Origin: Eledone cirrhosa
Taxonomy: Eukaryota
Assembly: GCA_964016885.1 (NCBI GenBank)
Contig: OZ024743.1
Span: 195,052,001-195,116,000 of the forward strand
Reading direction: 5' to 3'
DNA: 64,000 nt
A program made the translations under genes and the position numbers. The first letter of the stretch is position 1; every line of letters starts with the position of its first letter. Shown one piece after another: positions 34,973-63,384 of the stretch. A model generated the notes under the pieces. The model did not search any database. It worked only from the letters and a program-made list of their open reading frames with translations, and was not told where the DNA came from.

Positions 34973-36013
34973 GAAGAGCTTGTGTTATTGATTTGAAAAT
35001 TCCGGATTTATCCTATACCCGGATAGATTTAGTATGCAAACCATCCTGTGTATGATAATTCAATGCAATATTAATGATAATTCTATGCAGAGAATGCTGC
35101 CAACTGAGATATTTCAGGGAAATCAAGTGGTAGAATTATAACACTTCGAATTTTAATGACATAGAATAGTAGGTTTTAATTTCAGAAAACCTAAGCTTTT
35201 CTTTTTGTTTGTTTTAAAATTATGAAATTGCTAGCAGCACTTTTGAAGAGGAGATTAGGAATACTACCCAGGATAGTACTGGAGATGATAATGTTAATAA
35301 ATGAAAAACAAACTCAGAAGTGATATCAATCCTATTTTCTCTGGAGGCTCAGTTTATATTTACACTCAATGATCATATACCCAATTCATACATAAAAAGT
35401 TAAACAATACAATTCAAATTATAATATCGAAATTGTATTCATCTGAATTTGATAAAAGTTTATAGCTACGCATATATAGCAATATTTCCTGTTAAGGAAA
35501 ATTGATCACGTCAACTCAACAGTTATAGGGCATCGGCATTCAGGTAGATAACATCTTTGACTTTGAAGGCTGTCCGCCTTATTGATTGCTTGTATTATAT
35601 CGATAACAAATGATTCTGTCTTCATAGAATCGGTAGAGCTTGAAACAAAATCGATTGTGATAATCGTTCCAGTTCTTTAATTTCATTTTTGGATTTAAAA
35701 TATTCTAATGTCATCTTTGACATTTATCCATGTTGGGGTTATAAATAAATAACAAGTTAAATACTGGGTTCGGTATAATGGAATCACCCGCGACCATCAA
35801 ACGTGGTTTGACAAAAATCACGAGTAAATAGAAATTCACATAACAAATACTTACATTGAATTTTGGAGATCCCCGGGAAGTAGATAATGCATGCTGGTTG
35901 AGTCGGAATGTGAATTGTTTTGACTGAATTTAACTGGATTTAACATGCTTTCCCACGTAAATGTCTAAGTGTGTGTTTGAAAAACACCGAATATGTTTGT
36001 TTTATATCATATA

Positions 36014-37741
36014 CTAGCAGTAAAGCCCGGCGTTGCTCGGGGTCGCTCAGTAGCTGTGTTAAAGTTACAATGTAAGTTTCTTTTTTGGCTTAAAAACTGT
36101 AGTGTCTACTGTGCAGACTTGCATGTGGTGTTTTTGATTAATATTCCCTCAACCAACAATATGCCTTATGAAGTTAAGAAAACATAACGATAACTCGAAT
36201 GTTATAACAAAAGAGGATGCTGGGGATAGAAACTGCACTGGTTATTTATTAACAAAGATCGAAAATGTAAACACTGCAACGCAGAGAAGAACATTAGCGT
36301 AACCAAATTATCAGTTATGTCTGTCTGCACGCCTATATCACCTTTTTGCACGACTGTCTGTCTGCACGCCTGAAATATTTGCTTGTTTTACGTAGTCTTT
36401 AAATAGACTTGTTTTCAAGTAAAAATATTGTTTTAAAATGCTTTTAAATGGAAATGAAGCAAAACGGAAGCTTAGTGTTCGAACTGATGAATTTTGCAGG
36501 TCAATATTTTGCTGGCTCGACAACTGTTCGTGTATTGTGTTAATGTCATTTTAAACGCTGAGAAAGCCAGCGTAATTTTTTACGTAAGACGCTCAATGTA
36601 AACAGAACAAAGGGAAATAACTGATAACTTACGCTCAAAAATCGATACATTATATTCGATTTCGTCACATAGGGTGGGTCAATTTGAAATATTTTTTTTC
36701 CGATGTCTTCGCGAGGGCTCAATGTACAAGTATAGCAATTTCGGTGCAATTCCGTCAGAGATTCTAAGAGGAGATGTGTGCCAAAAATCGATAGACAGAC
36801 AGACAACCACAGTTTTATATATATAGACTAGCAGTAAAGCCCGGCGTTGCTCGGGGTCGCTCAGTAGCTGTGTTAAAGTTACAATGTTAAGTTTCTTTTT
36901 TGGCTTAAAAACTGTAGTGTCTACTGTGCAGACTTGCATGTGGTGTTTTTGATTAATATTCCCTCAACCAACAATATGCCTTATGAAGTTAAGAAAACAT
37001 AACGATAACTCGAATGTTATAACAAAAGAGGATGCTGGGGATAAAAACTGCACTGGTTACTTATTAACAAAGATCGAAAATGTAAACACTGCAACGCAGA
37101 GAAAAACATTAGCGTAACCAAATTATCAGTTATGTCTGTCTGCACGCCTATATCACCTCTCTGCACGACTGTCTGTCTGCACGCCTATATCACCTCTCTG
37201 CACGACTGTCTGTCTGCACGCCTATATCACCTCTCTGCACGACTGTCTGTCTGCACGCGTATATCACCTCTCTGCACGACTGTCTGTCTGCACGACTGTC
37301 TGTATGCACGCCTAACGACGAAATATTTGCTTGTTTTACGTAGTCTTTAAATAGACTTGTTTTCAAGTAAAAATATTGTTTTAAAATGCTTTTAAATGGA
37401 AATGAAGCAAAACGGAAGCTTAGTGTTCGAACTGATGAATTTTGCAGGTCAATATGTTGCTGGCTCGACAACTGTTAAAGCCAGCGTAATTGTTTACGTA
37501 AGACGCTCAATGTAAACAGAACAAAGGGAAATAACTGATAACTTACGCTCAAAAATCGATACATTATATTCGATTTCGTCACATAGGGTGGGTCAATTTG
37601 AAATTTTTTTTTTCCGATATCTTCGCTAGGGCTCAATGTACAAGTATAGCAATTTCGGTGCAATTCCGTCAGAGATTCTAAGAGGAGATGTGTGCCAAAA
37701 ATCGATAGACAGACAGACAACCACAGTTTTATATATATAGA
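36014..37741 (-). mobile_element. Non-autonomous Helitron, head-to-tail dimer (36014-36827 and 36828-37741)
   Basis: On the minus strand each unit starts TCtatatatataaaa and ends with the hairpin cccgagcaacgccggg plus CTAG. The junction is exactly CTAG|TC, and the dimer sits between A and T with no target-site duplication. Confidence 0.9.
37132..37312. repeat. 37-bp minisatellite inside the Helitron
   Basis: tgtctgtctgcacgcctatatcacctctctgcacgac occurs about 4 times plus partials here, versus ~1.4 copies at 36318-36371. Confidence 0.9.
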
Positions 37742-37954
37742 TTGTGTTAATCATTCTATGTTTTATGTTATACTTATATCGTGTTTTAGTCGTCATTTAA
37801 TCTGCCTATTGCATATCATTTTGGCGGCTACCCTCATTTTTGTATAACTTTGTCTGTCCAGCACCACATGTATTGTATTCCCTATGTGTGTAATCGTCAC
37901 CTTATACTACGAGCAAACGCCTGTAGTTAACAAAGGAATCATTATAATTATCAT

Positions 37955-40425
37955 TTTGAAAATTCTTTTGAATTTTGGTTCTTTCCCATATCATGCAGAA
38001 TATCAACTTAACATCCGAGGCAAAATTTAGTAATACACACATTTTACAATGAATTGTCATACGAATGATATCACAAGGGCATAATCAATAGAAAATATTC
38101 ATATTCGCTGATATTTTGGATTCTTTGCCGCGTATTTTACGATCTGATGGAATGCTACTAACAATAAAGAAGAATGTTCTTTTTATGGACCTTCATAATT
38201 ATATCCGGTCTATTGGCCTTGATCGATCCTTCGATGTTCACAGGGAAATTCCATAGGTTTGTCACATTCTGGCCTAATACTGCATCAGAATGTACCATTT
38301 TCCTTCTGCATTTACACAATAAATTTTGCATATTACACAGTGTTAATATTTATCTATCATGCCTCGATTTACATTCCTGGGAAGTTAATAGATTTCCACC
38401 TGAACCAGGTGATCAATGGTCTCAACATGCTTATCGCAGAATCGTCATCTTCGGTCAATCCCATTTCTTGCGCGTTGAAAGATGCTATTTTGTGCAGCCA
38501 AAATAAAGCCTTTACTCTCTGCTTTTAGCCCAGAAATCCGCAACAACTGATGGGAGAGTGATTGATCTACATCAGGTTCTTTGCTACCGAGAACATACTT
38601 CACATCTAGTGTGTAGTTTTCGTTGAACTTCATGTCTTGTCAACATTTTAATGTTTTTTTGCAGATATAATTGCAGAATCACAATTATTGTCGCAATGTA
38701 TTCCGCAAACTTCCTACTTTGCTTTGTGATTGAATGCAACTACTTCTTCAATTCATTATCTGCAACCATTTTCAACATCCAATCATCTATAGTTTTAAGG
38801 GAATTGTTTGTGTTCAATGGTAGATATTTTGTATGACAGCTCCAGCTCGATCCTTCCGCTTCCCACATTTTGTATAGGGAGTTAAAGATGGTACACATCT
38901 GCTTTTGGGTGATATAATTTATTGCTGGTTATGGGTTTACTGATTTTGGTGTCCATTTTCTATATTTCCCTAACGTTCCAAATTATGATATTGAAACTGA
39001 AGGTGACAACTGGGATTACAAGCGCATACATGGCAGATATTTTATTCTTTTAGTTGAACTCAGGTTTCATGACAGTACATATTCTCCGGTGGCATTCCTT
39101 CCAGATTTTCTCTTTATGCTGGCCTGACGAATACCTTGGTTTTCATTGATCCCTTGATATCTGTAGGTTTGTTCCAGTCCGTGTTCCTTAATTACTGTAT
39201 TCATATCTATCTCCATTGACTTTGTTCTTGTCATTCTGCATTTCTTGAACATTTTTCGAACATTTTTCAATGCAAACTCCATCCCTACATCATCGATGAA
39301 TACCTATACTGTCTTCAACAGTCCTTTCAATTCGCTGTCAATTTTGACATACTGTTTCACGCCATCCACAACAGAGGGTTTATAGTTTTGTTGTCTATTT
39401 TGTAGCCATATTTTGCTTTTTTGTGCACTAGAGAGTGTGGTATATGTATAATGCAAAATGTCAGAGGAGAAAACGAATCACCATGAAAAATACCAGTAAT
39501 AATTATGTTGCTGGAATTTACAGTTAAGTCATTGTGTGGCAGTGATAGATGTGTATTCCATACAAATGTTGTATTTAAGGAAGTTGAATATACTGGGGAA
39601 ATTTTCAGAACATCCAAGTTTTCAAAATCCATCAGTGGGGAACACTATCAAATACATTTTTATAGTTAATACAACAGTTCTGAAATTTCTTTGCTTCTTA
39701 TGACAGATTTCTAGAATCATATTGTTAATGATAAGTTACTGTTTGCAAACGCAAGACCCAAGGTGACCTCCTTTCTGCTCAACTGGGAAAAGATGAATTT
39801 CACAAATAAATATGTAGGTTGTCTCAGTTAAGTTTGAGATTAAAATGTTGTATGATTTGGGAAGGGAAGTAATAGTACTATAATCTTTTGGAATATTTGT
39901 TTCTGTCGTTTGGCAAGAGATACGTTACACCTTGTGCAAACCAATCAGGAGTTTAATCTTATATTTACAGTTAGTCTTGTTACGCATATAATGCTGTTTA
40001 ACGTACTTACATCCTGGGGGTCATCGACACTCAGGCATTGTTGTAGTGCGACATTATATATATCAATGATTTTCATGTTAGACTTTGTGGGTTGCATTTT
40101 TGGTGATATTTCATGTCATACAATTCCATGTGACGGTCTCTGCTTCCTGCCTCATTTTTTATTTTTGTGAAATATTCTGGTGGAGATTCATGTTCAAGTT
40201 CCTTTCCTTTTATTTCTGAGATTATGTAACAGTGTTCAGCTGTTCAGGCTGGTTATTGTTGGTCTGTATAGGGTTACCCTTTATTTATAATTTTGGTTGC
40301 ATGCTTCATGACCTTTATATTATCAACAATTATATTATCTTTGGTAATGGAACCGTTCCTTATGGCGTGTTTGATCCAATTCTGATGTGGTAAGTCTCTT
40401 ATTTCACATGATATCTCTGCGCTCA
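37955..40425 (-). mobile_element. Dong/R4-clade non-LTR retrotransposon, heavily decayed
   Basis: Minus-strand fragments GIFHGDSFSPLTFC (39357-39632), GLKAESKGFILAAQ (38445-38633) and KANRPDI (RLE, ~38200). Confidence 0.8.
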
Positions 40426-42964
40426 TTAGAGAGTTTAATTGCATCTATGAAGAACCTTGCGTCCAATCGCATGGACCAATCGTATAGGGTCATCTAGATC
40501 GTATATAGAGAGGATTTTCATTAGAAAGGTAGATAGAAATTGCGTAGGCTGTCCACGCTTTAAAACGGTCCCCTATTCAGATCACAGGTTTTGATCTGCA
40601 TAGTCGACCTAGATAAGACGCGTAGGTTAGAACCTGGACACTGGAAGCTGAACATGTCGTTTGCCGCACGTATGGCTTACATGGATTTACTTAAGCAAAG
40701 GTTGACAGAGGGGAGGGGGGAAGTGTCGTCAACAAGAGATGGTGAGGTGCTCTCAAAAAAGCGATTAGAGTAATTTCGATAGGGTTTAGCAAAGAAGTAA
40801 CGTTAGAGAAAGATGGAAAGGAGTGGAGTAGCTAAGGTAGACGAGGCTATTTGTAGTCGCATTGTAATTGACGTGCTAACGGCGAGAGTGGCATTAGACC
40901 ATTTCTTCAATGTGAAACGCGAAAATTGCATTGGCAGAGCTAAGGCGCGTGCTCTGAGAAACAAGGGAACCAAAGCTGTTCGATGGGTCCACGTGGCAGA
41001 GGCACAGCGTGGTAATAAAACCTCAATTCAGTCTTTGACGGACCGTGACGGACACGAGCTGAGCGATTCGAGGCGGTCGTGTGAGGCCTTTCGCCAGCAC
41101 TTTGTTCGGTTGATCGGGGGGTTGGGGTGGCAGATCAGAGACGGTAGCGGACTTTATTCTCTACCTCACCGGCTTGCCGCGCCTCTCGACGGCCGACGCT
41201 GAGAGCTGCGAAAGGCCGACAGCTTCAGCCAAAATTCGGGATGCCCTTGTCGGCTGCACGTGGTGCAAGTCACCCAGTTTCGATGGTCTGCCCTACGAGC
41301 TTTACGTATATATGCCAGGCTTGTTCTCCAATCTCCTCGAAGCACCCTACTACAACTGGCAGCAGAACGGGAGTATTCCAAGTTATGTGAGTCGTGTTGT
41401 AATGACGCTGATAAGGAAAGACGAGAACAAGAGGGACATATTAGATAACTTCAGGTCCATAACTCTGGTCAACACAGAGTTTAAGATTTTGGCCAAGGTG
41501 TTAGCGAAGAGGTTGGCGCTTTTCGTCGAAGATTTGGTTGAGGCGGTGCAAAATTGCGCAATCCTGATCATGTCCATACACGACAACCTCCACCTCATGC
41601 GATACATCATAGAGAGCGTAGAGTGTAAACCTTCATTTCTGCTGGTGCTCTGATCAGTTTAGATCAATCGAAAGTTTTCGATAGGATCGACCATCCGTAC
41701 CTGGAGACAGTCCTCAAGGCAGCTGGCTTCGGCCGCGTCTTTAGAAGCTCGATCGCTGCAATGCACAACGGCATTTACTGGGTGTTCAAAGTTAATGGCA
41801 ACCTCTCGGAATCGTTCCTGATCTCCCGATCGGTCCGACAATGATGCCCTCTTTCCTCCCTTCTGTACGTATTGACTCTTGAGCCTTTAGTGCGAAAGCT
41901 GGAGCTGTTGCTGTACATCCCTCTCGAACCGGGACGTGGAAAGGCTATGTCGGGTTATGCGGACGACATCACCGTGATGGTGTCGGGCACATCGGAAATT
42001 GAAGTGGCCAACTCGTCTCATCGGCTGAGCTGCAGTCCTGGTTCAAGAAGGGACTGAGATGGGTGACTGGCATCTGGAATGTTTCCAGGAACTTACTGCC
42101 ATTTACCGGGCGGGCAATGGGGTCAGTGGAATTTCCACTCTCGAGATCTATAGAGGATTAGTGGTAGGCAAATGCGACGACGTACTCGAAGAGTCTCTGG
42201 GTGTCGACGAAGTCGCAGTAACAAGTCTGTTCCGGAGGACTTTCGAGCCAGGGACGATGGATAAGTTTCAGAAATCCCTCGCTTGGCAGTGCTAACAGAG
42301 GACACTGCCCGTTCGATATAAACTCTACAGGCACGAAAGTGCTGTTTGACGGACCTACTCGAAATGCGCATAGAGTGACGAAATCATTCTGCACGCACTC
42401 TTCTACTGTCCGTGCATTACTGACTTGTAGAGTTGTGTCGAACAGCTGTTGTCGCGTGTAGAACGGATCCGGCTATCGGCCGAGACCATAGCAATTTTTC
42501 TGCCTGGTGGCAGTACCGAAAGAGATTGTATGGTGGACCAGGTTGAAAGGACTGAAGACAGACACTTTTTTCTTCGGCCAATTCCTCATCAACCTTTTCA
42601 AATTTAATTGGAAAGGAAGGTGAGGGTGGAGAGAAAAGTGCTGCCCCCGAACATTTGCTGAAATGTGGGTGAATAGGGCGAGAATGGCCTGTGTGAGTGG
42701 GCCTACACTGATTATGCGCGTGTAGGCTGGTGTATTTGAGGAAGAGAGGGGTGCCCTTCTCGGGTATCCCCTTAGCGTCGAGTGGTTCAAGATTGGGAAG
42801 TTACCTGAATCAACCCTAGGGGATTAATTATCCCTCCTATTGGTGTATTTTCATTGTAGTATTTTTCTTGTCTATTGTTATTGTTTTTTTATTTTTTAAT
42901 CGATTTTTGTGTAAAAACCCCCACTGTTACCTATATGTCGGCCCTTGTCTCCAATAATTGACAC

Positions 42965-43000
<36 letters not shown>
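40426..43000 (+). mobile_element. Tx1/L1-clade LINE, 5'-truncated and decayed, with (ATT)n tail
   Basis: PGHWKLN, KSPSFDGLPYELY, NFRSITLVNTEFKILAKVLAKRL, GYADD and KFQKSLAWQC are collinear with the 44.8-47.8 kb copy. Internal deletion near 42005. Confidence 0.88.
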
Positions 43001-43004
43001 CATT

Positions 43005-43491
43005 TTTATTTTCTTTCATTAATGGTTCTGAGATGTATGCCGAGTGTCTTCCTGACACCTAGGGCAAATAAATTCAGTGTGCATTGGTAAGCCATTTAAT
43101 ACAGCACATTGATTATAATTTTAAAAAAAAAAAAAAAACAGTATACATATATACACATGTGCATATGCATATGTAAATACAAGGAGGGATATCAATCTTA
43201 CGGAGATAGTGCTCTTCTCAATACGTGTTTCAGTACCATTCGAAACAATTTTTTGCACTTCGTGCAGAGATGGTAAAGCAGGAATAATTCGCAAATATTG
43301 TTCTGTTCCTTTCTTGATCATTCCCACTCCTCCCACAATCACTGGTATTGTAACGACCTTGAAGTGCCACATTTTATCAATTTCAATAAGCAGATCATTA
43401 TATTTTCGTAGCTTATCAAATTCTTTTGCCGCGATATTGTGATCATATGGGATGCTCATATCTATCAATAAACAGACCTTGTTGTGTTGTA
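43005..43491 (-). mobile_element. Dong/R4-clade 3' fragment (RLE C-terminus)
   Basis: ORF 43121-43519: CLLIDMSIPYDHNIAAKEFDKLRKYNDLLIEIDKMW...IPVIVGGVG. Confidence 0.85.
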
Positions 43492-43690
43492 GCAGTATCA
43501 GTAGAGGGTTGTATGCCATGCTTTCTAGTATAGTTACGTCCCTTTACGGTTTGAGTTTAAATCCCATCGAGGTTAACTTTGCCTTTCATCCTTACGGAGA
43601 GTCGATAAAATAAAGTGCCAGTAATGTACTGGGAAATTGCGGGCCTGGTGCCAAAAGTTGAAAAAAAGTATTATTATTATTATTATTATT
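43492..43690 (+). mobile_element. tRNA-derived SINE with (ATT)n tail
   Basis: gcagtatcagtagagg...gtcgataaaataaagtgccagt...cctggtgccaaaag, then (att)n. Confidence 0.85.
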
Positions 43691-43944
43691 ACAGTTGCAT
43701 TTATCTTGCTTTATGTTCATACGAGTTATCACCAAGTCACAACCAGTGACCTCAAGAGACAACAAGGTCCGCCATGTTCAAGAAAGAACATACATACTCA
43801 CACATGCATCTTTAGTGTTTAGACTTGTGATGTACTTATATTGACAGAATCTTCCTTAGTATATGGGCAGTTCCCATTAGTACTATCTTTTGTATTTCTC
43901 CTATACGCGGGTTTCCTGGGATTTGCGATAAGTAATCATTAGAC
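43691..43944 (-). mobile_element. 250-bp 3' end of a Dong/R4 element, same family as 48043-51043
   Basis: Aligns by eye to 48043-48291 with roughly a dozen differences. Confidence 0.85.
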
Positions 43945-44826
43945 GCGCAGCAACCAGGAACGACAGGTCAGTGGCACCCATACCCACGCCACAGAAATCA
44001 AAAACAGCAGCAGCAGTGGAAATATGAACAACAACAACAGCAATAACAAATGCAGCTGAAATAGAAACTCCAGTGCAAACATCACCAACAACAACAAGTG
44101 AAAGAGTGGAGCTGGTACCCCTCTCCGACTTCACAGAATCAGACATGGAGTGTGAGGTGGGAGAGGGATGGCAAAAGGTCGTAAGAAGGCACAAACGCAG
44201 AAGCAGCGCATCGTCGCCTTTGAAAAGGGAGGAAAGAAATGAGAAAAGGGTAAAGTCTACTGCAAAGAGACTCACAGCAGCAACACCACCAACACCATCA
44301 CCACCGACACTAGCACCACCATCACCACCGGCGACAACCCCACCGCCAACAACACCTTCAACAACACCACCACAAGCACCAACATCGCAAACACAACAAA
44401 ACACACACACCCAGCAACAACGACAAGGAAATAGCAGAACCACACCCCACCCCCAGAAAAACAAATGCACGGCAATAAATACACACAACAAGAAACTAAG
44501 GACTTACATAATTGAACACACAGACATTTCACAACACGACTACATAATACCAGCACCAATCAAAAACGCCAACTAACATAAGACTGCTAAAAATAGCACA
44601 TAAACAAATAGCACATAAACAATACACAAACATTAAGGGACCTAGGAGGAACTATCAATCGAAGAGTATATTCAGACATACTCATAGAAGAGCCGACGAC
44701 CAGCCGAAGGGACGATTCAACGGTCCCTTCACCAGACGATCAAGTGAAAAGGGATGTAAAAACCATCCCTCCTCTACGAAAAGTACGGTAAGTGGTCTTT
44801 CCCATCTTTTCCACTCAATTTTAAAC

Positions 44827-45870
44827 ATGAACTCACTCAGAATAGGCAGCATAAATGCGCGTGGTTTGGGGTCGTCATGGAAGCAGGGTCACCTGCTCAA
44901 CGACCTCAGGTCACTAAACATAGATGTAGTGGCCATCAGCGAGACCAGAATCTCCGAAGCACGGGCCTTCGCACCGATCTTCGGCGGCTACGATGTGTAA
45001 GCATCTCCCAGCCGTCCTGGATCGGGGGGAGGAGTTGCTGTGCTTTTTCGGAGAGATTTGGATCTCGCCATACGGGCCATCTTCCTGGACCCAGAGGGTA
45101 AGCTGGTGGTGCTGGACGTGACCAGCGGAGACGGGCAAGCTTTCAGGCTAGTGGCCGTCAATGCCCCGACAGGAGCAGGGCGGCCTGATTTCTTCCGGCG
45201 TCTGGAGACCTTTCTTGGAACGTCCCGCTCTTTAGTGTTAGTGGGCGACTGGAACGGGATCTTAGATGCACGCTGGGACTGTGGGGAATTAGCGGATAGG
45301 GGTGGAGGGTGCAAGAGCCTCACCAACCTCATCAGGCGTTTTGAACTGTCTGACACGTACCGATTGGATTTCCCGAATGTGCCAATGTGGACTTGGACAA
45401 ATCGCGTAGAGTCATCCAGATCATATCTAGATAGAGTATTTTGTAGGGAAATAGATAGGTCTAGCATAGGCTGTCCACAATTCAAGATAGTCAGCTACAC
45501 GAACCACAAATTCGTGATCTCTGTGCTTGACTTAGATAGGCTTCATAGACGAGGACCCGGCTACTGGAAGCTAAACGCGTCCTTACCAGCCCGCAAGGCC
45601 TACAGAGACCGGATTAGCGAACTAGTTAAGCGGGCGTTGACGGGGGCCATCGTCAACAAGTGGTGGTTTGCTCTGAAAAGAGCGATTAGAATAGAATCGA
45701 TCAGGTTTAGTAAGGCTTTAGCAATAGAGAAAAATAGAGCAGAGGGAGAACTAGTTAGAAAATTAGACGAGGCGCTTAGCAAAGGCATTGCGACCGACGT
45801 GCTTGCGGCGAAATTGGCCCTTGACCAATTCTTCAATGCAAAGCATGAAGGCTGCGTGTCAGAGCAAGGG
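44827..45870 (+). pseudogene. Tx1 ORF2 AP-endonuclease domain
   Basis: ATG at 44827 starts MNSLRIGSINARGL...DVVAISET. There is an in-frame TAA at 44998. ORF 45040 onward has GDWN, SYLDR, TNH (for SDH) and GPGYWKLN. Frameshift near 45860. Confidence 0.88.
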
Positions 45871-47762
45871 TGCGTGCTCTCAGACACGAGGGGACGAAAG
45901 CCGTTCAATGGGCCCGAGTGGCGGAGGCGCGTCGTGGCAACAAAGCCACGATCCGGTCTTTGGTGGACCACGGCGGGCGCATGCTACTCGATCCCGGGCA
46001 AATGTGTGACGCTTTTCAGCGACACTTCGCTCATCTGTTCGGGGGCAGCGGTGGGCCGGGTCGAGGGATGGACTTTAGTGTCTACCTCGACGGACTGACG
46101 CGGCTCTCGGCCACTGAGGCGAAGTGTTGCGAAAAGCCGATAACAGCCGCTGAAGTAAGGGAGGCAATGACTGGCTGCACAAGGGGTAAATCGCCTGGTT
46201 TGGATGGTCTGCCCTTTGAACATTACGTACAGATGCCAGACTTGTTCGGAGGCCTCTTGGCGGACGTCTACTGCAACTGGCATCAGAACGGGAGAATGCC
46301 CAGTTCTGTGAGCCGAGGAGCGGTTGCACTGCTGAGAAAGGATCCGAACAAGGGGGATAACATAGATAATTTCCGGCCCATAACTCTGCTAAACGCAGAG
46401 TTCAAGATTTTGACCAAGCTGCTAGCAAAGAGGTTGGCGCTTGTCGTTGGTGGTCTGGTGGGAGAGGCGCAGACATGCGCCATTTCCGACAGATCCATCC
46501 ACGACAACCTCCACCTCATGCGATACATCGTAGAGAGGGTAGCTAGGGAACCTGGCACAGGTGGGTCCTTGATCAATTTAGATCAGTCGAAAGCCTTCGA
46601 TAGGGTCGACCATCGTTACCTAGCGGCAGTCCTGAGGGCGGCTGGCTTTGGACCCGTCTTCAGAGGCTGGATCGCTGCCATCCACAGCGACATCTGCTCT
46701 GTGGTGAGAGTGAACGGTCACCTGTCGGAACCGTTGAACATCATGCGCTCGGTCCGCCAAGGATGTCCCCTCTCGTCCCTCTTGTACGTATTGACTCTCG
46801 AGCCATTACTGCACAAACTGGAGACGTTGAGGGGCGTCCCGCGCGAACTAGGATGCGGAAGATCCGTGTCAGCATATGCGGACGATGTCACCGTAGTGGT
46901 GTCGAACGCCAAACACATCGAGGCGATCGGCACTACACTAAGAGAATACGAAGCGGTGACAGGAGCAATGATCAACCAGGCAAAGTCAGTGGGCCTGCAG
47001 CTCGGCACCTGGAGAGGCAGGTCCATGCCGTCCAACAGCGTCGTCGGACGCTGGACGGACGGACCGGTTAAATTGCTAGGGGTCTGGTTCGGTCCGAACC
47101 TCCAGACGGACAAAAACTGGGACGAGGTGACGAGCAGGGTGGCTTCTCTCACCCAGAAATGGGCGGAGAGGAAGCTATCCCTGAAAGGTCGAGCGGAGGT
47201 GGCTAACGCGTACATCGCGTCTGTCATCTGCTACCGCCTGACCGTCGTACCTTGTCCTAAGCCTCGCCTGACTGCGCTGGAGCGTTTGCTCTTTCGCTTT
47301 TTGTGGAAAGGAAGTGCTCCGATGGTCAGGCGGTCCATCTGTTGTCAACACCCGCTACGTGGAGGGCTGGGCATGCCGTGGCTGATGATGCGCAGGCACG
47401 CGCTCATGCTACGACATCTCCACCTCTTCCTCGACGGTGATCAGGTGTGGTCGCCATTTGCTAGACACGTATTTCCCCAGCTCGTTTCCTTGACGGAGCT
47501 GCAGTCCTGGGTCAAGCGAAGACTGAGAGGGAGCGCCTGGAGACTGGGATGTCTTCAGGCGCTCACAGCCGTCGACCACTCGGGCAATGTGATCGGTGGA
47601 AACTCCACCTCGGCGTTCTATAGAGGATTAGTGGAGGGGAAGAGCGACGACGTACTTGGGGAAACTCTAGGCGTCGACGAAAATCAACTAGCCAATCTCT
47701 TCGGAAGAACTTTCGGGCCAGGGCCTATGGACAACTTCCAGAAATCTCTGGCCTGGCAGTAA
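45870..47762 (+). CDS. Tx1 ORF2 reverse transcriptase domain (630 aa open; C-terminal zinc-binding region deleted)
   Basis: KSPGLDG, NFRPITLLN.EFKI, DQSKAFDRV, VRQGCPLS, AYADD, LLGV, GGLG.P motifs. Confidence 0.92.
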   Translation: MRALRHEGTKAVQWARVAEARRGNKATIRSLVDHGGRMLLDPGQMCDAFQRHFAHLFGGSGGPGRGMDFSVYLDGLTRLSATEAKCCEKPITAAEVREAMTGCTRGKSPGLDGLPFEHYVQMPDLFGGLLADVYCNWHQNGRMPSSVSRGAVALLRKDPNKGDNIDNFRPITLLNAEFKILTKLLAKRLALVVGGLVGEAQTCAISDRSIHDNLHLMRYIVERVAREPGTGGSLINLDQSKAFDRVDHRYLAAVLRAAGFGPVFRGWIAAIHSDICSVVRVNGHLSEPLNIMRSVRQGCPLSSLLYVLTLEPLLHKLETLRGVPRELGCGRSVSAYADDVTVVVSNAKHIEAIGTTLREYEAVTGAMINQAKSVGLQLGTWRGRSMPSNSVVGRWTDGPVKLLGVWFGPNLQTDKNWDEVTSRVASLTQKWAERKLSLKGRAEVANAYIASVICYRLTVVPCPKPRLTALERLLFRFLWKGSAPMVRRSICCQHPLRGGLGMPWLMMRRHALMLRHLHLFLDGDQVWSPFARHVFPQLVSLTELQSWVKRRLRGSAWRLGCLQALTAVDHSGNVIGGNSTSAFYRGLVEGKSDDVLGETLGVDENQLANLFGRTFGPGPMDNFQKSLAWQ

Positions 47763-48004
47763 CCGTCCTGTATTGTCCTGCACTGTCCTTAATGCCCTGG
47801 TGGTCAGGGTCACTGTGGTCTTTTAATGGGCTTTCTCCACAAATGTCCCTCGGAAGTCTCCCCCCTATTGGGGAATTTTTCTTTGTTATTTTATTTCAAC
47901 CTCTGTTTTTTTACACGCGGAAATGCCCATTTGTACCGTCCTGTATTGTCCTGTACTGTCCTTAATGTCTACTTTATGTAAACCCTTGTGGTTAATAAAG
48001 AAAA

Positions 48005-48042
<38 letters not shown>

Positions 48043-48045
<3 letters not shown>

Positions 48046-51042
48046 TTGCATTTATCTTGCCTTATGTTCATACGAGTTATCACCAAGAAACAACCTGTGA
48101 CCTCAAGAGACAACAGGGTCCGCCTTGTTCAAGAAAGAACATACACACACATGCATCTTTAGGTGTTTAGACTTGTGATGTACTTATATTGACAGAATCT
48201 TCCTTAGTATATGGGAAGTTCCCATTAGTACTATCTTTTCTATTTCTCCTATACGCGGGTTTCCTGGGATTTGCGATAAGTAATCATTAGACCCCTTAGG
48301 TATCATTCCTAGATCGCCTACAACACACTGGTATTGTTTTAGTTCTCAATTTCCACATTTTTCTAATTTCTATCTCCAGGTCTTTATACTTGCTCACTTT
48401 TTCAAATATTTTTATAGATACATTCTTGTCTATTGGAACGGACATACCCTCTTTTTAAAGTCCTTCAGTATTATATCACGTCTATTTGCATCAATTTTTC
48501 GGTCTGTTTGGATGCTAAAATTCCACAAGATTGAGATGTGATCTTTTTCAAGTATGGGAGGTGGTTGATGCTGCCACCAATTCTTTTGATGGGGCAGGTC
48601 AAAATGCTTACACATTATCCAATGTATGTATTGTGCAGCTCTGTCATGCCTGTTTAGGTATTCTGTTGGAGCTATAGGACTGCACATTGAAATTATATGA
48701 TCAATGGTCTCTGGTTGTTTTTTACATACACGGCATAATGGGTTGCATCCATTTTTTATTATGTTGGCTTGGTAATTTTTTGTTGGCAGACACTGATCTT
48801 GTGCTGATATAATCAGTCTCCAGTCTCCGATTTCAACCCAGAGGATGCCAACCCCTGATGGGTTAAAGTTTTGTCAACATCAGGATTGTTAGTGTCTTTC
48901 TGGGTATTTTCCATACAGAGGCTTTTCTTGCCATTTCTTAGCCAGTTTCTGTAGCAGTTCTTTCTTTGAAGTTACTTTTACTTGCTTTGCTTTTTCTGTG
49001 TTTATCATTTCAGCAGTAAATGGAACTTCTGAAATTAGTAGTCCATTACTTTATCTTTGTGCATCTTTTGTAATGGAGTATGCTCTTTTGATGCTTTCGT
49101 GTTTCAAAACGATTTTGATCATCCAATCATGTGATTCCCTTAGATATGTAGATAATCCAATTGTTCCAGTTTTCAACGCAATATATACATGGATTAACCC
49201 ACGTCCTCCTTCTTTCCTAGGGAGATATATTCTATATGTATCTGCCTTAGGGTGATGCATTCTGTGCATGGTTAAGAATTTTCTAATTTTTGTATCGAGC
49301 CTACTGATATCTGTGTTTGATCAGTTGATGACATTGTAACTGAAGGTTACTACTCGTATGGCAAGCGTTTTATGGCATCGATCCTATTCCTTGCATTCAA
49401 TTCCGTTCTTAAAATTGCTCTTACTCTGCGGTAACATTCCTTCCTTATCCTTTCCCTCATTGTCTAGTGCTTGATTCCGTCTCCTTCACAAACACGTAGA
49501 TATTTGTAAGTTCCCTCTTGATCAAGTTCTCTTATCACATTCCCCCGATCAAGATTAATGTCTGAACTTTTCAGCAGCTTTCCTCTGGTGAACGTTGCTA
49601 TGGCGCATTTATCTAGTCCAAATTCCATTTTAATGTCATCACTGAACTGTTTCACAGTGGATTTTGCAATTGTTGGCCCTTGCAATTGTTTATAATTTTA
49701 TGCAAAGTGTTTCAGGTCATCCATGTAGAACGAGTGATTAATTCTTTTGTCATAGACTTTATATCCCTGTTTTGTTTCCTTGAGCATTTTACTTAATGGT
49801 ATAAATGCGATGCAGAATAAAAGCGGTGATAAAGAGTCACCATGAAAAATTCCACAATTAATATTAACTTCTCCAGCTTCCAGTGATTTTTTCTCACTAT
49901 TCAAAAGGAGTGTCGTTTTCCATGTCGTCATACTGAATGTCAGGAACCTCCTGACAACGGCAGATATTTTGAAAATCTCTAAACACTTTTAATCCAACTG
50001 TGGCAAACTATCGAATGCTTTTTTATAATCTATCCAAGCATTTGATGGTTTTTGTTTCTATTATGACAATCTTCCAGTATCTGATCTTTACAGCCATATG
50101 AGCCTCGTTTACACCCTTTCTGCTCATTGGGAAATAGATCATTTGTTATCAGGTGTTCATATGCATATTCAATTAGGACTGATGTTAAAATTTTATACAT
50201 TGTGGTCAAGCAAGTTATCGGTCTGTAATTTTTGGGATGGTTTGTCTCATCATGCTTCGGAAGCTGGAATGTAATGCCGTTAACTAGCGATGGTGGTATC
50301 TTTTCTGGCTCCTTAAGCATTTCATTGTAAAGTTGGGATTCAAAGTGTTACAATTTACCTCGTTTTCACTGACACATGTTGCATTTTCCCTTCGCTGACT
50401 TTGATCAATTTCTATATAAGTTAGTAACTTTTTTTAAACAATATTTCTTCGTATATTGGCTATTTTATTACTGTCAATATAGCCTCTGTTTTCGGGATGT
50501 TTCTTTTTCCAGTTGATATATGTCCGTTCTGTATTCGATCTATTTGATGGGTAGTACATGGCAGTGTAGAAAGCCTCAAGGACATCTTTATTGTCTTCCC
50601 TTGACCATTTTTCTCTCTTTTTCTTTGGATTTCTTGGTGGTGAGCATGGGGGGCCAACAGTAGGAGTATTCCGGTTATGGGAGGTGTCCAGATCCGAAGT
50701 GATGGGAAGGTTTGAACCATTAGCTGATTTTTCGACCCCAGTCAGGTTTCTCTCTGAGGGACGCGGCCCTTTTTGACCCGGGTGACGGCCGATCCGGTGT
50801 GAGATTTTATCATTTGACATTGGCTTTATTTTGTTCCGTTTTATCCTTAACGACCGAGGGGTGATCATTTCGTGTTACCACTCCTAGGACGAGTCAAGAC
50901 TAGAGGGGTCGTCCTCCCCTAGAGACACGGCTATTCTCCGCCGGCCGCCATCCTGGTATTTCTTGGTCACGGGGTTTTCTTTTTTTGTTGTTTTTTAGAT
51001 TGTTATTATCATGGGTGGTTCCTTAATGTGAGCATTGCGTGG

Positions 51043-51043
<1 letters not shown>
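48043..51043 (-). mobile_element. Dong/R4-clade element with both ends retained, internal deletion near 50340-50430, flanked by (TAA)n
   Basis: N-terminal REKWSREDN..VLEAFY, NYRPITCL, GIFHGDSLSPLLFC, YMDDLK, RKEGGRGL, RHD, and ILWNFSIQTDRKIDANR.DI (RLE). Many frameshifts. Confidence 0.9.
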
Positions 51044-51087
<44 letters not shown>

Positions 51088-51093
51088 GTTATT

Positions 51094-53477
51094 ACTCCTT
51101 GATTCTCAGTCATTGATGTTAGTTAACCGGAAAGTCCGTTGGAATGAATATCAAGCCACTAGCTGCAGCCTCAGATATTCAGGACGTATCGGAGGGTTCT
51201 TGCTGTTCCCTGCAAGCATGCCTTTTGAAGCGTTCAAAAAGCGTGAAGGGGCCGATTTTCTTTAACCATCCCTGGAAACTTTTGGAGATAGTCCCCAGTG
51301 CGCCTATGACAATCGGGATCACTTTGACTTCATGGCAGTTCCAAATCCTTTTTACCTCCCACTTTAGGTCCTGGTATCGGTTAATTTTCTCCCTCTCCTT
51401 CTCTCGCACTCTCGTGTCGCAGGCCACATCCACAATCAGACACGATCTTTTTTGTTTGTCCACAACTACCAGGTCAGGTCTATTGTGTTCCAGTTTCTTG
51501 TCCGTCTGTATCCTAAAATCCCACAGCACCTTCACCTGATCGTTCTCCATCACCGCCTCTGGCTTATGCTCATACCATTTCTCAGAATGTGGTAAATTGT
51601 TTACTTTGCACAGGTGCCAGTGGATCACCCTGCCCATCACATCATGTCTCCAGCCCTTATAGTGGGTCTAGGCTAGGTGTTTACACTCGGATACAATGTG
51701 AGCCACAGTCTCCTCTCTCCACAGATCCTGCACAGTGGGCTAGCCTCCTCCTTGTAAATATGGTGTTTCAACCACTTCGTTTTGAGGGCCTGCTCCTGCG
51801 CAGCCATTAACATTCCTTCTGTAGCCTTTTTAAGGTCTCCTCTTCTCAACCAGTTCCATGTCTGTGGATCTCTAAATTCAGTTTTCTCAGAGAAGGTACT
51901 ATGAAGGGATTTTTCCTGAAGGCTGCTCTTTCTCCTTGATGTTATTTCCTCCTTGGACATCCCTGGCCTATTGTCCCCTCCTTCAGTACAGTTCTGAGCA
52001 TTGGCTCCTTACTATCAGTCACGTATTTGTGTAGGTTGTTTTTCTCCATCTGAACACAGTCCTCTATGCTGATAAGACCTCTTCCACCCTCAGATCTCCT
52101 TAGGTAGAGTCTATCGACATCACTCCTCTTGTGGAACATGTTGTAGATAGTCAATAGCTTCCTAGTCTTCCTATTCATTTCTTTTTGTTCAGCAACATTC
52201 CATCTCAGAATTCCCGCACTGTACCTAATAATAGACACACCTCGGGAATTTACTGCGTTTATGGCATTTCTGCTGTTCAGATGTGACTTCTATACGCTCC
52301 TTATTCTCCGAATGTATTCAGTTCTTAACAATTCCTTCATTTTTTTGTTCTGTATGCCATCAGCCTCCAGAACGCCCAAATACTTGTATCCTTCTTCAGA
52401 GTCAATTTCCTTTATCATCTCACCTGTTGGTATCTGGATTCCGTTACTTCTGCTCAACCTACCCCTCCTCATCACAATGACTCCACACTTACTAATACCA
52501 AACTGCATACATATATCACTGCTGAAAATACGGACAGTGTCAACAAGCACATCCAACTCCTTCTCACTCTTCCCGAAGAGCTTAAGATCGTCCATGAAGA
52601 GGAGGTGATTGATGGTAAGCCCTCCCTTTCCCAACCTGTATCCTGCTCTCACTTTTCGCAGTACACTGGTCAGGGTCATCAGGGCAAGGACAAACAACAG
52701 AGGGGACAGGCTATCTCCCTGGAAGATACCTCTCTTGATCTTCACGCTTCCCAAGGATTCTCCAGTTGATGTCAACTCTGTTTCCCAGGACCTCATACTT
52801 TCGCCCAACAACTGTCTGATGTTATCTGCCACCTTGAAGATCTCCAGGCTTTTGGTGATCCAAGAATGAGGCACCATGTCAAATGCCTTTCTGTAGTCTA
52901 TCCATCCCATGGCAAGATTAGTGTGTCTCCTCCTGCAATTCCCCATTACCATCTTACAATAAGTAACTGGTCCTTTGTACCACGTGACTTCTTTAGGCAT
53001 CCTTTCTGTTCGTCCGGTAACAAGTTGTTTGTGTGGAGGTGATGGTAGATTTCCTCAGACACAATGCTCGTCAACAGTTTCCACATTACGGACAGACATG
53101 TGATAGGTCTATAGTTGGTAACATCATTACCCTTGATTCGGTCTTTCATTATCAGAACTGTGGTACCTTTTGTCAACCACTCTGGTACCACACCTGACAT
53201 CAAGCAGTCATTGAACATGGTTGTCAGTTTCGGGTGGAGGGATGTTATGTTTTTAATCCAATACCCCTGCACACCATCTGGGCCTGGTGATTTCCAGTTT
53301 GTTAGTTTTTTGGCCTGCCCCTTATAAGTTTCAACTGTGATACTCAAATCAGTTTGTTAGTGTGCCTGTTCACCGATCTCCTTCTGTACTGTCTCAATCC
53401 ACACTGCCTGGTCATTATGTTTAACATCCTGCTCCCATATTCCTCTCCAGAATGTTTTAGTTTGTTCCGCCTCAGGG

Positions 53478-53478
<1 letters not shown>
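51094..53478 (-). mobile_element. Dong/R4-clade element (different family), 5'-truncated, flanked by (TAA)n
   Basis: ORFs 52946-53347 (WKSPGPDG, NYRPITCL), 52290-53000 (DYRKAFD, GIFQGDSLSP, FMDDLK), 51673-51960 (CRIC) and 51179-51640 (NRPDLVVVD...D, RLE). Confidence 0.92.
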
Positions 53479-53524
<46 letters not shown>

Positions 53525-53920
53525 AAGGCGGTGGAATGGCAGTATCGGTAGAGGGTCGGATGCCATGCTTTGAAGCATAGAGTTACCTCCCTGTATGATC
53601 TGAGTTCAAATCCCGCCGAGGTTAACTTTGCCTTTCCTCCTTACGGGGTCGATAAAATAAAGTACCAGTAATGCACTGAATAATTGCTGGCCTTGTGCCA
53701 AAAGTAGAAACAATTATTTGGCAGTATCGGTGGAGGGTCGGACGCCATGCTTTCCACCATAGTTACGTCTCTTTACGATCTGAGTTCAAATCCCGCCGAG
53801 GTTGACTTTGCCTTTCATCCTTACGGGGTAGATAAAATAAAGTACCAGTAATGCACTGGGTAATTGCTGGCCTTGTGCCTAACGTAGAAATCCTTATTAT
53901 TATTATTATTATTATTATTG
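53525..53920 (+). mobile_element. Two tandem tRNA-derived SINE copies (53525-53718, 53719-53920) with (ATT)n tail
   Basis: Each copy has tggcagtatcggt (A box), gagttcaaatcc (B box), the family core and the ccttgtgcc 3' end. Confidence 0.92.
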
Positions 53921-55407
53921 TTCTTTGAGTCTCAGTGATTGATGTTAGTTAACTGGAAAGTTTGTTGAAATGAATATCAAGCCGCTACCTGCAGCCTCAG
54001 ATATTTCGGAGGGTTCTTGCTGTTCCCAGCAAGCATGCCTTTTGAACTGTTCCAAAAAGCGGGGCTGAACTAATATTCTTCAATCATCCCTGGAAACCTT
54101 TTGAGATAGTACCTAGTGCGCCTATGACAATCGGGACAACTTTCACTTCATGGCAGTCCAAATCCTTTTTACCTCCCACTTTAGGTCCTGGTATCGGTTA
54201 ATTTTCTCCTTCTCTTGCACTCTCTTGTCGAATGGGCAGGCTACATCTACAATCAGGCACGATCTTTTTTCCTTGTCCAAAACCACAAGCTCAGGTCTAT
54301 TGTGTTCCAGTTTCTTGTCCGTCTATATTCTAAAATCCAACAGCTTCTTCACCTGATCGTTTTCTATCACCGACTCTGGCTTATGCTCATACCACTTCGC
54401 AGAATGTGGTAAATTGTTTACTTTGCATAGGTGCCAGTGGGTCACCCTGCCCATCACATCATATCTCCAGCCTTCATAGGGAGTCTGGGCTAGTTGTTTA
54501 AACTCGGATACAATGTGAGCCACAGTCTCCTCTCTCTCTCTACAGATCCTACACAGTGGGCTAGCCTCCTCCTTGTAAATATGGTGTTTCAGCCACTTCG
54601 TTTTGAGGGCCTGCTCTTTCGCAGCCATTAGCCTTCCTTCTGTAGACTTTTTAATTTCTCCTCTTTTCAACCAGTTCCATGTCTGTAGATATCTAAATTC
54701 AGTTTTCTCATAGAAGGTACTATGAAGGGATTTTCATGAAGGCTGCTCTTCCTTCTCGTTGTTATTTCTTCCTTGGACATCCCCTGGTCTATTGTCTTCT
54801 CCTTCAGTACAATTCTGAGCATAGGCTCCCTACTGTCAGTCACGTATTTGTGTAGGTTGTTTTTCTCCACCTGAACACAGTCCTCTATGATGATAAGACC
54901 TCTTCAACCTTCTGATCTCTTTAAGTAGAGTCTATTGACATCACTCCTCTTGTGGAAGATGTTGTAGATAGTCAATAGCTTCCTAGTCTTCCTAGCCATT
55001 TATTTTTGTTTAGCAACATTTCATTTCAGAATTCCCCCACTGTACCTAATAATAGACACAGCTCGGGAATTTACTGCACTTAGGACATTCCTACAATTCA
55101 GATGTAATTTTAATACGCTCCTTACTCTCCGAATGTACTCAAATCTTATCAATTTCTTCATTTTTTCGTTATTGATGTCATCTGCCCCCAGAACCCCTAA
55201 ATATTTGTATCCTTCTTCAGTGTCAATTTCCATTATCATCTCACCTGTTAGTACCTGGATTCCGTTGCTTCTGCTCAATTTATCCCACTTCATCACTAGG
55301 ACTCCACACTTATTAATACAAAATTGCATACATATATCATTGCTGAAAATACGGACAGTGTCAACAAGCACATCCAACTCCTCATTCTTCCCAAAGAGCT
55401 TAAGATC
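53921..55407 (-). mobile_element. Dong/R4-clade element, same family as 51094-53478, truncated at the RT DD motif
   Basis: Collinear with 51100-52590. ORFs 55021-55377 and 54323-54670 (CRICREREETVAHIVSE). Confidence 0.92.
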
Positions 55408-55505
55408 TGTACCGTCCTGTATTGTCCTGTACTGTCCTTAATGTCTTACTTTGTGTAAACCCTTGGGGTTAATAAAGAAATCATTATTATTATTATTATT
55501 ATTAT
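55408..55505 (+). mobile_element. 75-bp Tx1 3' terminus + (ATT)n
   Basis: Near-identical to 47932-48010. Confidence 0.88.
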
Positions 55506-55506
55506 T

Positions 55507-55712
55507 TGGCAGTATCGGTAGAGGGTCGGACGCCATGCTTTAAGGTATAGAGTTACGGCTCTTGCCATTCTGAGTTCAAATCCCGCCGAGATTAACTTTG
55601 CCTTTCATCCTTACGGGGTCGATAAAATAAAGTACTAGTAATGCACTGTGTAATTGCTGGCCTTGTGCCTAAAGTAGAAACAATTATTATTATTATTATT
55701 ATTATTATTATA
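55507..55712 (+). mobile_element. tRNA-derived SINE with (ATT)n tail
   Basis: A box, B box, core and 3' end as in the other copies. Confidence 0.92.
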
Positions 55713-55824: not shown

Positions 55825-56023
55825 ATAATAATTTGTTTCTATATTTTGCACAAAGTCAGCAATTATCCCAGTGGATTACTTACTGGTACTTTATGTTATC
55901 GACCGCGTAAGGATGAAGGGCAAAATTAACCTCGGCGAGATTTGAACTCAGACTATAACGGACCGTAACTCTTTGCTGCAAAGCATGGCGTCAGACCCTC
56001 TACCGATACTGCCAATACGCCGC
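55825..56023 (-). mobile_element. tRNA-derived SINE
   Basis: Reverse complement matches the other copies of the family. Confidence 0.85.
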
Positions 56024-56317
56024 ATTATTATCCTTAGTGTTGGATAATAATACGGTATTTTCACCTACATAAAGTTTTATTAATAATGAATTTTACCCGA
56101 AAAGAAATAAATGGTACGTCTTATTTTGTCCTTAAATCTTTGTAAATCTAAAATGATGATATAGTGACTACATGGATCACAAATATAAAGGAAAACAAGC
56201 GATTTGTAAAGCTCTTTCTTTACCATAATTACAACCAACACTATTTAAACGCAGCAAATGTCATTACTTCCTTCAATGTGTGATAAACTATGTACCAGTC
56301 AATAACTTTAGTATATA

Positions 56318-62740: not shown

Positions 62741-62782
62741 ATGTATATATATATACACACACACACATATATATATATGTAC

Positions 62783-62813
<31 letters not shown>

Positions 62814-62866
62814 CACATATATATATATATACACATATATATATATACATGTATATACACACACAG

Positions 62867-62899
<33 letters not shown>

Positions 62900-62904
62900 C
62901 ATAT

Positions 62905-63384
62905 ATAGTAGAAAGGAAAAATATTCTTTCAGTAGAAAATGTTGAAGAGATTTTTTTTCAGTGAGATATCAAAACAATAATTTATTTACATTACCTGTTT
63001 CAGCACTAAATGCATTGTCGATTGCGTATCTGCAGAATATTGTTAAGTTGCATATTTGTACAAATAGTGATAATAATAATAATGAAGAAAATGAAAATAA
63101 AAAGGGGCAGAAAATTTAATTTTCACATACATATTCATTCAGGGAAGAGAGGTCATTTCTCTGTCCATCCTACTCTGCTTCTAGCTTGGTTGTGACAGGT
63201 AAAATTAGAGGGTAGTGGGAGGAGGGGAGAGGAGATGAGGAAGGAGGAGTATCAGCAGGCTGCTGCGAGAAGCCCTTTGAGGAGTGGATGCAACCGGTAT
63301 TGTAGATAAATTAACATTTGATATCTCACTGAAAAAATATCTCCAAGATTTTCTACTGAATGAATCTTTTTCCTTTCTACTATT
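62905..63384. repeat. ~68-bp inverted repeat pair (62905-62972 / 63317-63384) bounding a non-coding insert
   Basis: tagtagaaaggaaaaa...cagtgagatatcaaa versus tttgatatctcactg...tttttcctttctacta. Confidence 0.75.

Follow-up and report, generated by a model that had tools for sequence, protein, structure and literature searches.

Why should 18 kb of the Eledone cirrhosa genome hold retrotransposons of three families, each family in one orientation, strung between tracts of a single trinucleotide? The question is raised by a pile of elements at positions 37743-55709 of a 64,000-bp stretch of this 3.0-Gb genome (C4:195.05-195.12 Mb; the whole stretch is called the window below), in which six Dong/R4-type and three Tx1-type long interspersed elements (LINEs), four short interspersed elements (SINEs) and eight (ATT)7-14 tracts were identified. 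The reading we favour, with a probability of roughly 0.75, is that two unrelated endonuclease systems share (ATT)n in opposite polarity and that each insertion splits one tract into two, adding a landing site.

An earlier note, made from the letters of the window, had placed six Dong/R4 pieces on the minus strand and all Tx1 pieces and four SINEs on the plus strand, and this layout was borne out by self-comparison, tract scanning and annotation. Under coin-flip orientation, the fixed polarity of the thirteen elements has a probability of 2.4e-4. All eight tracts of at least five units in the window are confined to 42966-55709, with ATT on the plus strand in every case; 0.8 tracts would be expected in 18 kb (Poisson p ~2e-6), taking as baseline the nine tracts per 200 kb counted in twenty evenly placed 10-kb windows. 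Nine tracts had been listed originally, of which eight are clean and the one at ~37945 is degenerate, with no clean (ATT)n. The pile reads from left to right as follows (UTR, untranslated region; ORF, open reading frame; RT, reverse transcriptase; APE, apurinic-type endonuclease; REL, restriction-like endonuclease).

37743-37940, plus strand: probable very old Tx1-type 3' UTR end (p 0.006-0.014 against Tx1A/D/E 3' ends in local alignment)
~37941-37959: decayed ATT-like stretch following the probable Tx1 3' end
37960-40425, minus strand: DongC, an old, 5'-truncated Dong/R4-type LINE (tblastx to DongA/B; nearest copies differ by 17.5-21%)
40426-42965, plus strand: Tx1B, an old, 5'-truncated Tx1-type LINE (70-74% identity to Tx1A)
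42966-42998, plus strand: (ATT)11, tail common to Tx1B and DongD (tract scan)
43000-43490, minus strand: DongD 3' piece including the end of the REL endonuclease region (ORF 43121-43543)
43492-43669, plus strand: SINE, head-to-head with DongD (self-comparison, annotation)
43670-43690, plus strand: (ATT)7 (tract scan)
43691-43944, minus strand: DongB 3' piece of 254 bp, the youngest insertion (0-0.4% from copies elsewhere in the genome)
43945-48005, plus strand: Tx1A, a 5'-truncated two-ORF LINE with the end of ORF1 and an ORF2 with APE endonuclease and RT (PF03372, PF00078)
48006-48041, plus strand: (ATT)12, tail common to Tx1A and DongB (tract scan)
48042-51045, minus strand: DongB, with part of the 5' UTR and ~950 bp of internal sequence missing (annotation)
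51046-51087, plus strand: (ATT)14 (tract scan)
51088-53477, minus strand: DongA, 5'-truncated, with RT, CCHC knuckle and REL region (PF00078, motifs)
53478-53519, plus strand: (ATT)14 (tract scan)
53525-53890, plus strand: tandem pair of SINEs (self-comparison, annotation)
53896-53919, plus strand: (ATT)8 (tract scan)
53920-55407, minus strand: DongA2, an older DongA-type 3' piece (88% identity to DongA)
55408-55482, plus strand: Tx1A-type 3' end of 75 bp (95% identity to 47929-48029)
55483-55506, plus strand: (ATT)8 (tract scan)
55507-55682, plus strand: SINE (sequence comparison)
55683-55709, plus strand: (ATT)9, right edge of the pile (tract scan)

The Tx1 3' end suspected at ~37920 is thus a probable old Tx1-type end, with weak support: three of six Tx1 ends matched, while no significant alignment was obtained with the Tx1B/F/G 3' ends and close relatives were absent among the fetched loci. 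The DongD piece shows 92-94% identity to 39 other copies among the matches listed. On the minus strand, 120 bp to the right of the last tract, positions 55830-56026 hold a fifth, older SINE, which is outside the pile and not linked to a tract.

Which enzymes do these elements encode? Full-length Tx1A copies are ~6.0 kb long and carry a CCHC-bearing ORF1 and an APE-RT-zinc ORF2; the domains of the latter in locus L222 are PF03372, PF00078 and PF13966, and its closest solved relative is L1 ORF2p (E 5e-51). The knuckle C-x2-C-x4-H-x4-C was present in ORF1 of L222, L224, L226, L228 and L231, such a CCHC knuckle in ORF1 being typical of Tx1. The name Tx1 is an L1/Tx1-group call refined by ORF1 and targeting, none of 34 homologues being a named Tx1 element. 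The Tx1A of the pile was considered as a full-length copy and dropped as such given the 6.0-kb copies elsewhere; it is 5'-truncated and carries an internal deletion of ~660 bp. Five 5' UTR/ORF1 types of Tx1 were seen (L244, L245, L222, L237, L163, L017), each beginning right after ATT, and the >90% identity of the Tx1H ORF2 to that of Tx1A suggests 5'-end swapping. In 65 distant Tx1-like loci from metagenome contigs (best segments 21-48% identical), no ATT/AAT tract of at least five units was found; being so distant, and in many cases incomplete, these loci are uninformative on target conservation.

Near-complete Dong ORFs in loci L258 and L260 consist of a single frame that encodes RT, a CCHC knuckle and an endonuclease region of the PD-(D/E)xK type; the C-terminal CCHC and PD-(D/E)xK restriction-like endonuclease motifs are kept across 45 aligned Dong proteins. 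Their best solved relatives are R2 proteins, both by sequence (E 3e-32) and by fold. The two LINEs therefore fall, by their relatives, into two endonuclease classes, Tx1A near L1 ORF2p and DongA near R2. A C2H2 finger pattern was absent from the first 400 residues of the 45 aligned Dong rows. The Dong/R4 clade is described as having a divergent Myb/SANT-like domain in place of N-terminal zinc fingers (PMC7998251), and Dong residues 58-128 form, in a predicted model, a conserved helical bundle (predicted local distance difference test ~87) that fits Myb, although no search named it Myb. The Dong/R4 name is a call from domains, motifs and target, no named Dong or R4 being present among the 120 matches listed.

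The long 5' UTRs of DongA and DongB are alike, and some DongB copies (L248, L253, L255) carry a 45-bp SINE 3' fragment at one spot of the 5' UTR. Short inverted pieces at the Dong 5' junctions in L119, L162 and L185 resemble the 5' inversions that arise when a single RNA undergoes twin priming. An Rfam search of three 10-kb loci with full-length Tx1A, DongA and DongB returned no ribozyme or other RNA family.

Is the polarity of the pile a local accident? The count of orientations relative to (ATT)n beyond this locus, which the earlier note had proposed, was carried out and gave fixed rather than random orientations. Across 399 distinct tracts outside the window, Tx1 was on the plus strand in 227/227 cases, Dong on the minus strand in 289/294 and the SINE on the plus strand in 127/131. 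Half of this count is set by each element's own tail; the 5' side is not so fixed, and there the informative neighbours comprised 97 plus and 0 minus for Tx1, 131 minus and 4 plus for Dong, and 70 plus and 1 minus for the SINE. Of the four exceptional Dong neighbours, one bears an AAT tail of its own; the other three are short pieces in inverted orientation.

A sample drawn by tract pattern only (C1 gave 2,401 matches, and the first 70 were taken) yielded 67 distinct tracts, 62 of which touched one of the three families; the pattern leaves out tracts followed by A and so disfavours DongB. Two apparent minus-strand Tx1 neighbours in this sample were low-complexity GTT matches that disappeared after masking. 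Exact joints between a Tx1 tail and a Dong tail numbered 752 for one subfamily pair alone, a tail-to-tail Dong was present at 10 of 29 other Tx1A 3' ends (two of the ten being one duplicated locus), and one of the twenty evenly placed windows (L266) contained a pile of the same build. Given this genome-wide polarity, the L266 pile and the tail-to-tail joints, the locus is ordinary for its genome, with comparable piles at hundreds of places.

Both LINEs mostly follow a tract. Directly before 2,423 of 2,536 full-length Tx1A heads genome-wide lies (ATT)4, and Tx1 is therefore an ATT target-seeker and not a tail donor alone; in the fetched loci, full-length Tx1 heads of five 5' types directly followed a tract in 71 of 72 cases. 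DongA/B copies had a same-polarity tract on the 5' side in 96/112 cases (rows for DongC and DongD that lacked a 5' tract were excluded as artefacts arising from truncated references), which, together with the TAA polarity of 131/135 5'-side neighbours, agrees with the known targeting of TAA repeats by Dong.

The proposal that insertion regenerates target also held: tracts flank most Tx1A, DongA and DongB copies at both ends, the insertions cluster, and in one paralogous pair an empty (ATT)8 corresponds to a filled (ATT)8-Tx1A-(ATT)10. Tracts at the 3' end exceeded those at the 5' end in length, with medians of 15.5 and 8 units, in 16 of 20 scored copies (p = 0.03), four copies not being scored. 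Among the first 100 Tx1A heads on C1, 17 of 99 gaps were shorter than 7.1 kb, all between same-strand heads, against 1 expected. Runs of three to five Tx1A heads on one strand, 6.0-6.9 kb apart, were seen at C1:55429683-55455605, 56163706-56175769 and 57091844-57103952. An RTE-type element with ATT tracts in its 3' region was observed in L181/L226, one empty and the other with a full-length Tx1A at the same tract.

The SINE behaves differently, being mostly dispersed and not tract-bound. ATTA came next in 104 of 120 near-full-length copies; of nine SINEs in the evenly placed windows, none had a long tail and seven had target duplications. Long-tailed SINEs had a tract already upstream, on the 5' side, in 25 of 32 cases. 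A hairpin with a CTTGT loop and a stem of at least three pairs was present in 109/127 Tx1 and 44/57 SINE 3' ends, mostly 12 nt before the tail, with stem letters that differ between the two and yet pair; none of 155 Dong and 5 CR1 ends had the loop. Because this hairpin is common to both, the SINE is likely a Tx1 passenger mobilised by the Tx1 enzyme, although plain sequence similarity between the 3' ends is borderline. SINE and full-length Tx1 also share polarity and an ATTA start, yet most SINEs stand outside tracts and Tx1 inside. A CR1 family has an ATT tail and no 5' tract in 7/7 copies, and is a likely source of first tracts, seeding piles. At the CR1-type 3' ends (L230:1501-2027, L062, L094, L120, L158, L274, L337), Tx1, Dong or a SINE was found in or beside the tail in six of seven.

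How might two enzymes on one repeat give such an arrangement? Target-primed reverse transcription is known for L1, R1 and R2. By analogy with these, the Tx1 APE domain would nick the AAT strand and prime on an RNA ending in (AUU)n, while the Dong REL domain would nick the ATT strand and prime on an RNA ending in (UAA)n; the opposite polarity of Tx1/SINE and Dong would thus likely arise because unrelated endonucleases nick opposite strands of one microsatellite. Each insertion would cut one tract into two and leave an extra landing site. The SINE would borrow the Tx1 enzyme, a short ATTA match being enough, and so would be dispersed, yet Tx1-oriented when in a tract. Ordinary microsatellites would supply the first tracts, together with the tails of tract-independent elements (the CR1 family, some SINEs and older Tx1).

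Several points weigh against this account. Most loci behind the tract table had been retrieved by means of these very families, and those loci also furnished some entries of the library. Some close spacings of Tx1A heads are tandem or segmental duplications (L172/L173; L028/L029). Of the 68 Tx1 copies whose two ends could be resolved, mostly truncated ones, just 35 had a 5' tract (25/37 Tx1A-type copies and 10/31 of older types), and two older Tx1 copies (L288, L293) have SINE-like target duplications at ATTA; either Tx1 targeting is looser than the full-length heads imply, or full-length copies owe their 5' ATT run to the RNA. At all three head-to-head joints of Dong and Tx1 in the window (40425, 43944 and 55407) a tract is lacking. 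Finally, the nick strands are deduced by analogy, and annealing of tail to primer alone would give the same polarity.

This last point can be extended into an alternative, which we consider unlikely, in which the endonucleases are loosely specific (ATTA/TAAT), polarity and tract preference arise when the tail of each RNA pairs with a 3' end left free within the repeat, and the 5' tract of full-length Tx1 comes from a transcript starting in an upstream ATT run. The SINEs, so often followed by ATTA and yet mostly dispersed with target duplications, fit such capture, as do the older Tx1 types with their like duplications and few 5' tracts; annealing of the 3' UTR to the target repeat has in addition been proposed for SART1 (PMC7265360). 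A truncated copy, however, cannot carry an RNA-borne 5' run, and the 5' tracts of the DongA/B copies, mostly truncated, and of the Tx1A-type copies therefore count against it. So does the targeting of (TAA)n by Dong reported in insects, molluscs and cnidarians (PMC7998251).

Improbable, in our estimate, is a one-way supply in which Tx1 and SINE tails make the tracts and Dong prefers them. The 67 pattern-selected tracts had a Tx1 or SINE 3' end on the left in 37 cases, Tx1 tails being the commonest left neighbour (26/67), and at 45 tracts shared by Tx1 and Dong, a rough clock, the distance to the nearest copy across 150 bases, made Tx1 look older 17 times and Dong 7 times and left 21 pairs tied. 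Dong, however, occupied tracts behind Tx1/SINE tails no more often than those behind other left neighbours (13/37 vs 13/30, p=0.62), and the enrichment behind such tails that the earlier note had predicted was not found; Dong therefore uses any tract. Moreover, Tx1 itself needs a tract, long-tailed SINEs mostly landed in an existing one, and a Dong piece at ≤1.5 kb was present in 0/29 best SINE matches. Of the supply of Dong targets by Tx1/SINE tails there remain the frequent tail-to-tail joints, without a preference of Dong for such tails and with Tx1 a target-seeker in its own right. The self-feeding array of three families likewise becomes one of two engines and one passenger, the SINE being mostly dispersed and the feeding mutual.

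The tract-free joints call for an explanation of their own. Besides the three joints with Tx1, one of two head-to-head joints of Dong and SINE in the window is without a tract (43491), and the DongC-Tx1B joint is spanned by contigs from one sample. Elsewhere, head-to-head joints of Dong and Tx1 comprised 3 tract-free cases (L071, L248, L290), 4 with one or two units and 41 with a tract. Deletion, either during 5' joining or afterwards, is the likely origin of the joints and the plainer reading, since the elements abound in internal deletions with microhomology, three of them within the pile. It is doubtful that they reflect twin priming across clades, in which one RNA from each LINE, Dong and Tx1, primes at its own end of a break in the tract and the cDNAs are joined head-to-head. 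The joints in the window and the three elsewhere would fit, and partner ages are roughly alike at the Dong-Tx1 joints (10-13%/9%; 0%/0.5-1.7%; 4%/2.8%), while DongD (4%) and its SINE partner (7%) are unequal in age. Same-orientation joints lose the tract too (one cross-subfamily Dong joint, L090, vs 26 with a tract; also L233 and L240), at a rate not clearly below 3 vs 41, and deletions that remove hundreds or even thousands of bases are frequent. We accordingly give little credence to two machines acting at one break, with Dong priming the ATT-strand end and Tx1 or the SINE the AAT-strand end, and to a pile with three or four double insertions.

Dating of the copies by divergence, a further check named in the earlier note, was done as terminal-branch and nearest-copy estimates and gave a spread in the pile from ~13% to 0%. 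Terminal branches of the old members were 10-13.5% for DongC and ~9% for Tx1B; DongD and DongA2 stood at 4% and the SINE at 43492 at ~7%; the young members, at about 1-3% and with three of the SINEs among them, were DongB (2.8%), DongA (1.0%), Tx1A (0.5-1.7%) and the SINEs, of which the tandem pair stood at ~2%; the short DongB piece was at 0%. If the rate of 0.0036 per million years used for Octopus (PMC13282606) holds here, growth of the pile would have spanned roughly 30-35 million years. The short DongB piece at 43691-43944 shows 94.6% identity to the DongB at 48020; being closer to distant copies than to this local one, it is an independent insertion and not a local duplication. A 276-bp repeat (43669-43944 / 48020-48292) was examined as a giant target duplication and ruled out by the divergence pattern.

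That local tandem duplication or a co-transposed composite Tx1-Dong unit built the pile can hardly be believed: the segment 43669-43944 does recur at 48020-48292, and duplicate loci exist elsewhere (L028/L029; L172/L173), but the spread of ages refutes such an origin here, the two DongB pieces differ as described, the members belong to four subfamilies of Dong and two or more of Tx1, which differ in age, and truncation points and tract lengths vary freely.

Other observations concern the surroundings of the pile. Its left edge adjoins 35999-37741, which consists of two overlapping duplicated units (~375 bp at 97.6% and ~530 bp at 88%) and includes a 37-bp tandem repeat at 37133-37314. A Penelope-like element at 61502-62968 on the minus strand has a 488-aa frame with RT and a weak GIY-YIG match, and pieces related to it lie at 26179-26631, 21805-22326 and 13754-14734. 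ARAGORN and Rfam gave no match in the window. Public runs containing this stretch come from one sample of one study, as contigs, which may be the assembled sample, and offered no usable empty allele. In L279 (G000:C7:50000001-50010000), a ~63-bp tandem repeat covers most of the 10-kb window.

Sharing of one repeat by two LINEs likely accounts for the location of a sizeable share of the young LINEs in a 3-Gb genome, most long ATT tracts touching these elements, and the SINE, which is very abundant, gains a likely carrier. For testing how nick strand and RNA tail set polarity, the genome provides an APE and a REL endonuclease naturally paired on the two strands of one repeat, and the piles, as dated stacks, could be used to order bursts of activity.

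How does this arrangement compare with known systems? Expansions of Dong-R4 and L1-Tx1 are reported in coleoids (PMC8967140, PMC13282606), the parts of these sources covered mentioning no shared target; in Octopus vulgaris Dong-R4 is described as abundant and recently active, with L1-Tx1 also among the recently active LINE classes (PMC13282606, Table 1). Neither an ATT-targeting Tx1 nor Tx1 and Dong on one microsatellite was found in a literature search, with subscription papers mostly outside its coverage and Repbase/Dfam not compared; PMC3747384 contributed nothing further on the point. The Dong part itself is nothing new: these elements resemble known members of the R4 clade in their single ORF, RT with C-terminal REL endonuclease and (TAA)n at both ends, and (TAA)n targeting is reported for Dong in insects, molluscs and cnidarians (Bombyx Dong, DongAg, DongBg; PMC7998251, PMC3812793). 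The difference is that the target here is common with an unrelated LINE on the other strand.

The Tx1 part resembles the teleost Kibi and Koshi ((TC)n, (TTC)n) and the crocodilian Tx1 elements ((TTCC)n/(TTTC)n), two-ORF APE LINEs specific for microsatellites (PMC4494074, PMC3812793). The statement of the earlier note that some Tx1-clade elements are microsatellite-specific agrees with these four targets (PMC4494074). The target here is (ATT)n, unlisted for Tx1 in the parts of those sources covered, and is used by five 5'/ORF1 variants. For the SINE, the crocodilian pair SINEU/Tx1-Mar is the nearest likeness, a SINE likely mobilised by a target-specific Tx1 and inserted in tandem at its target (PMC4494074); here the two are linked by a 3' hairpin and an ATT tail in common, and the SINE keeps to the target far less than its likely partner does.

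Two LINEs on one target are known as well. TRAS1 and SART1 are both APE-type elements of the R1 clade. They insert in opposite directions into one short repeat, the telomeric (TTAGG)n of Bombyx (PMC7265360), but are confined to telomeres and both use APE, whereas here one APE and one REL element share interstitial arrays, at least hundreds in number. Convergence of an APE element (Keno, Tx1 clade) and an element with a restriction-like endonuclease (RLE; Utopia) on one target is described for U2 snRNA genes (PMC4640811); as described there, the two have identical 3' flanks and the same orientation in a low-copy gene. Precedents thus exist for the parts, and (ATT)n is an addition to the known Tx1 targets; in contrast to Keno and Utopia, the two LINEs of Eledone cirrhosa stand in opposite polarity on a target that multiplies with use.

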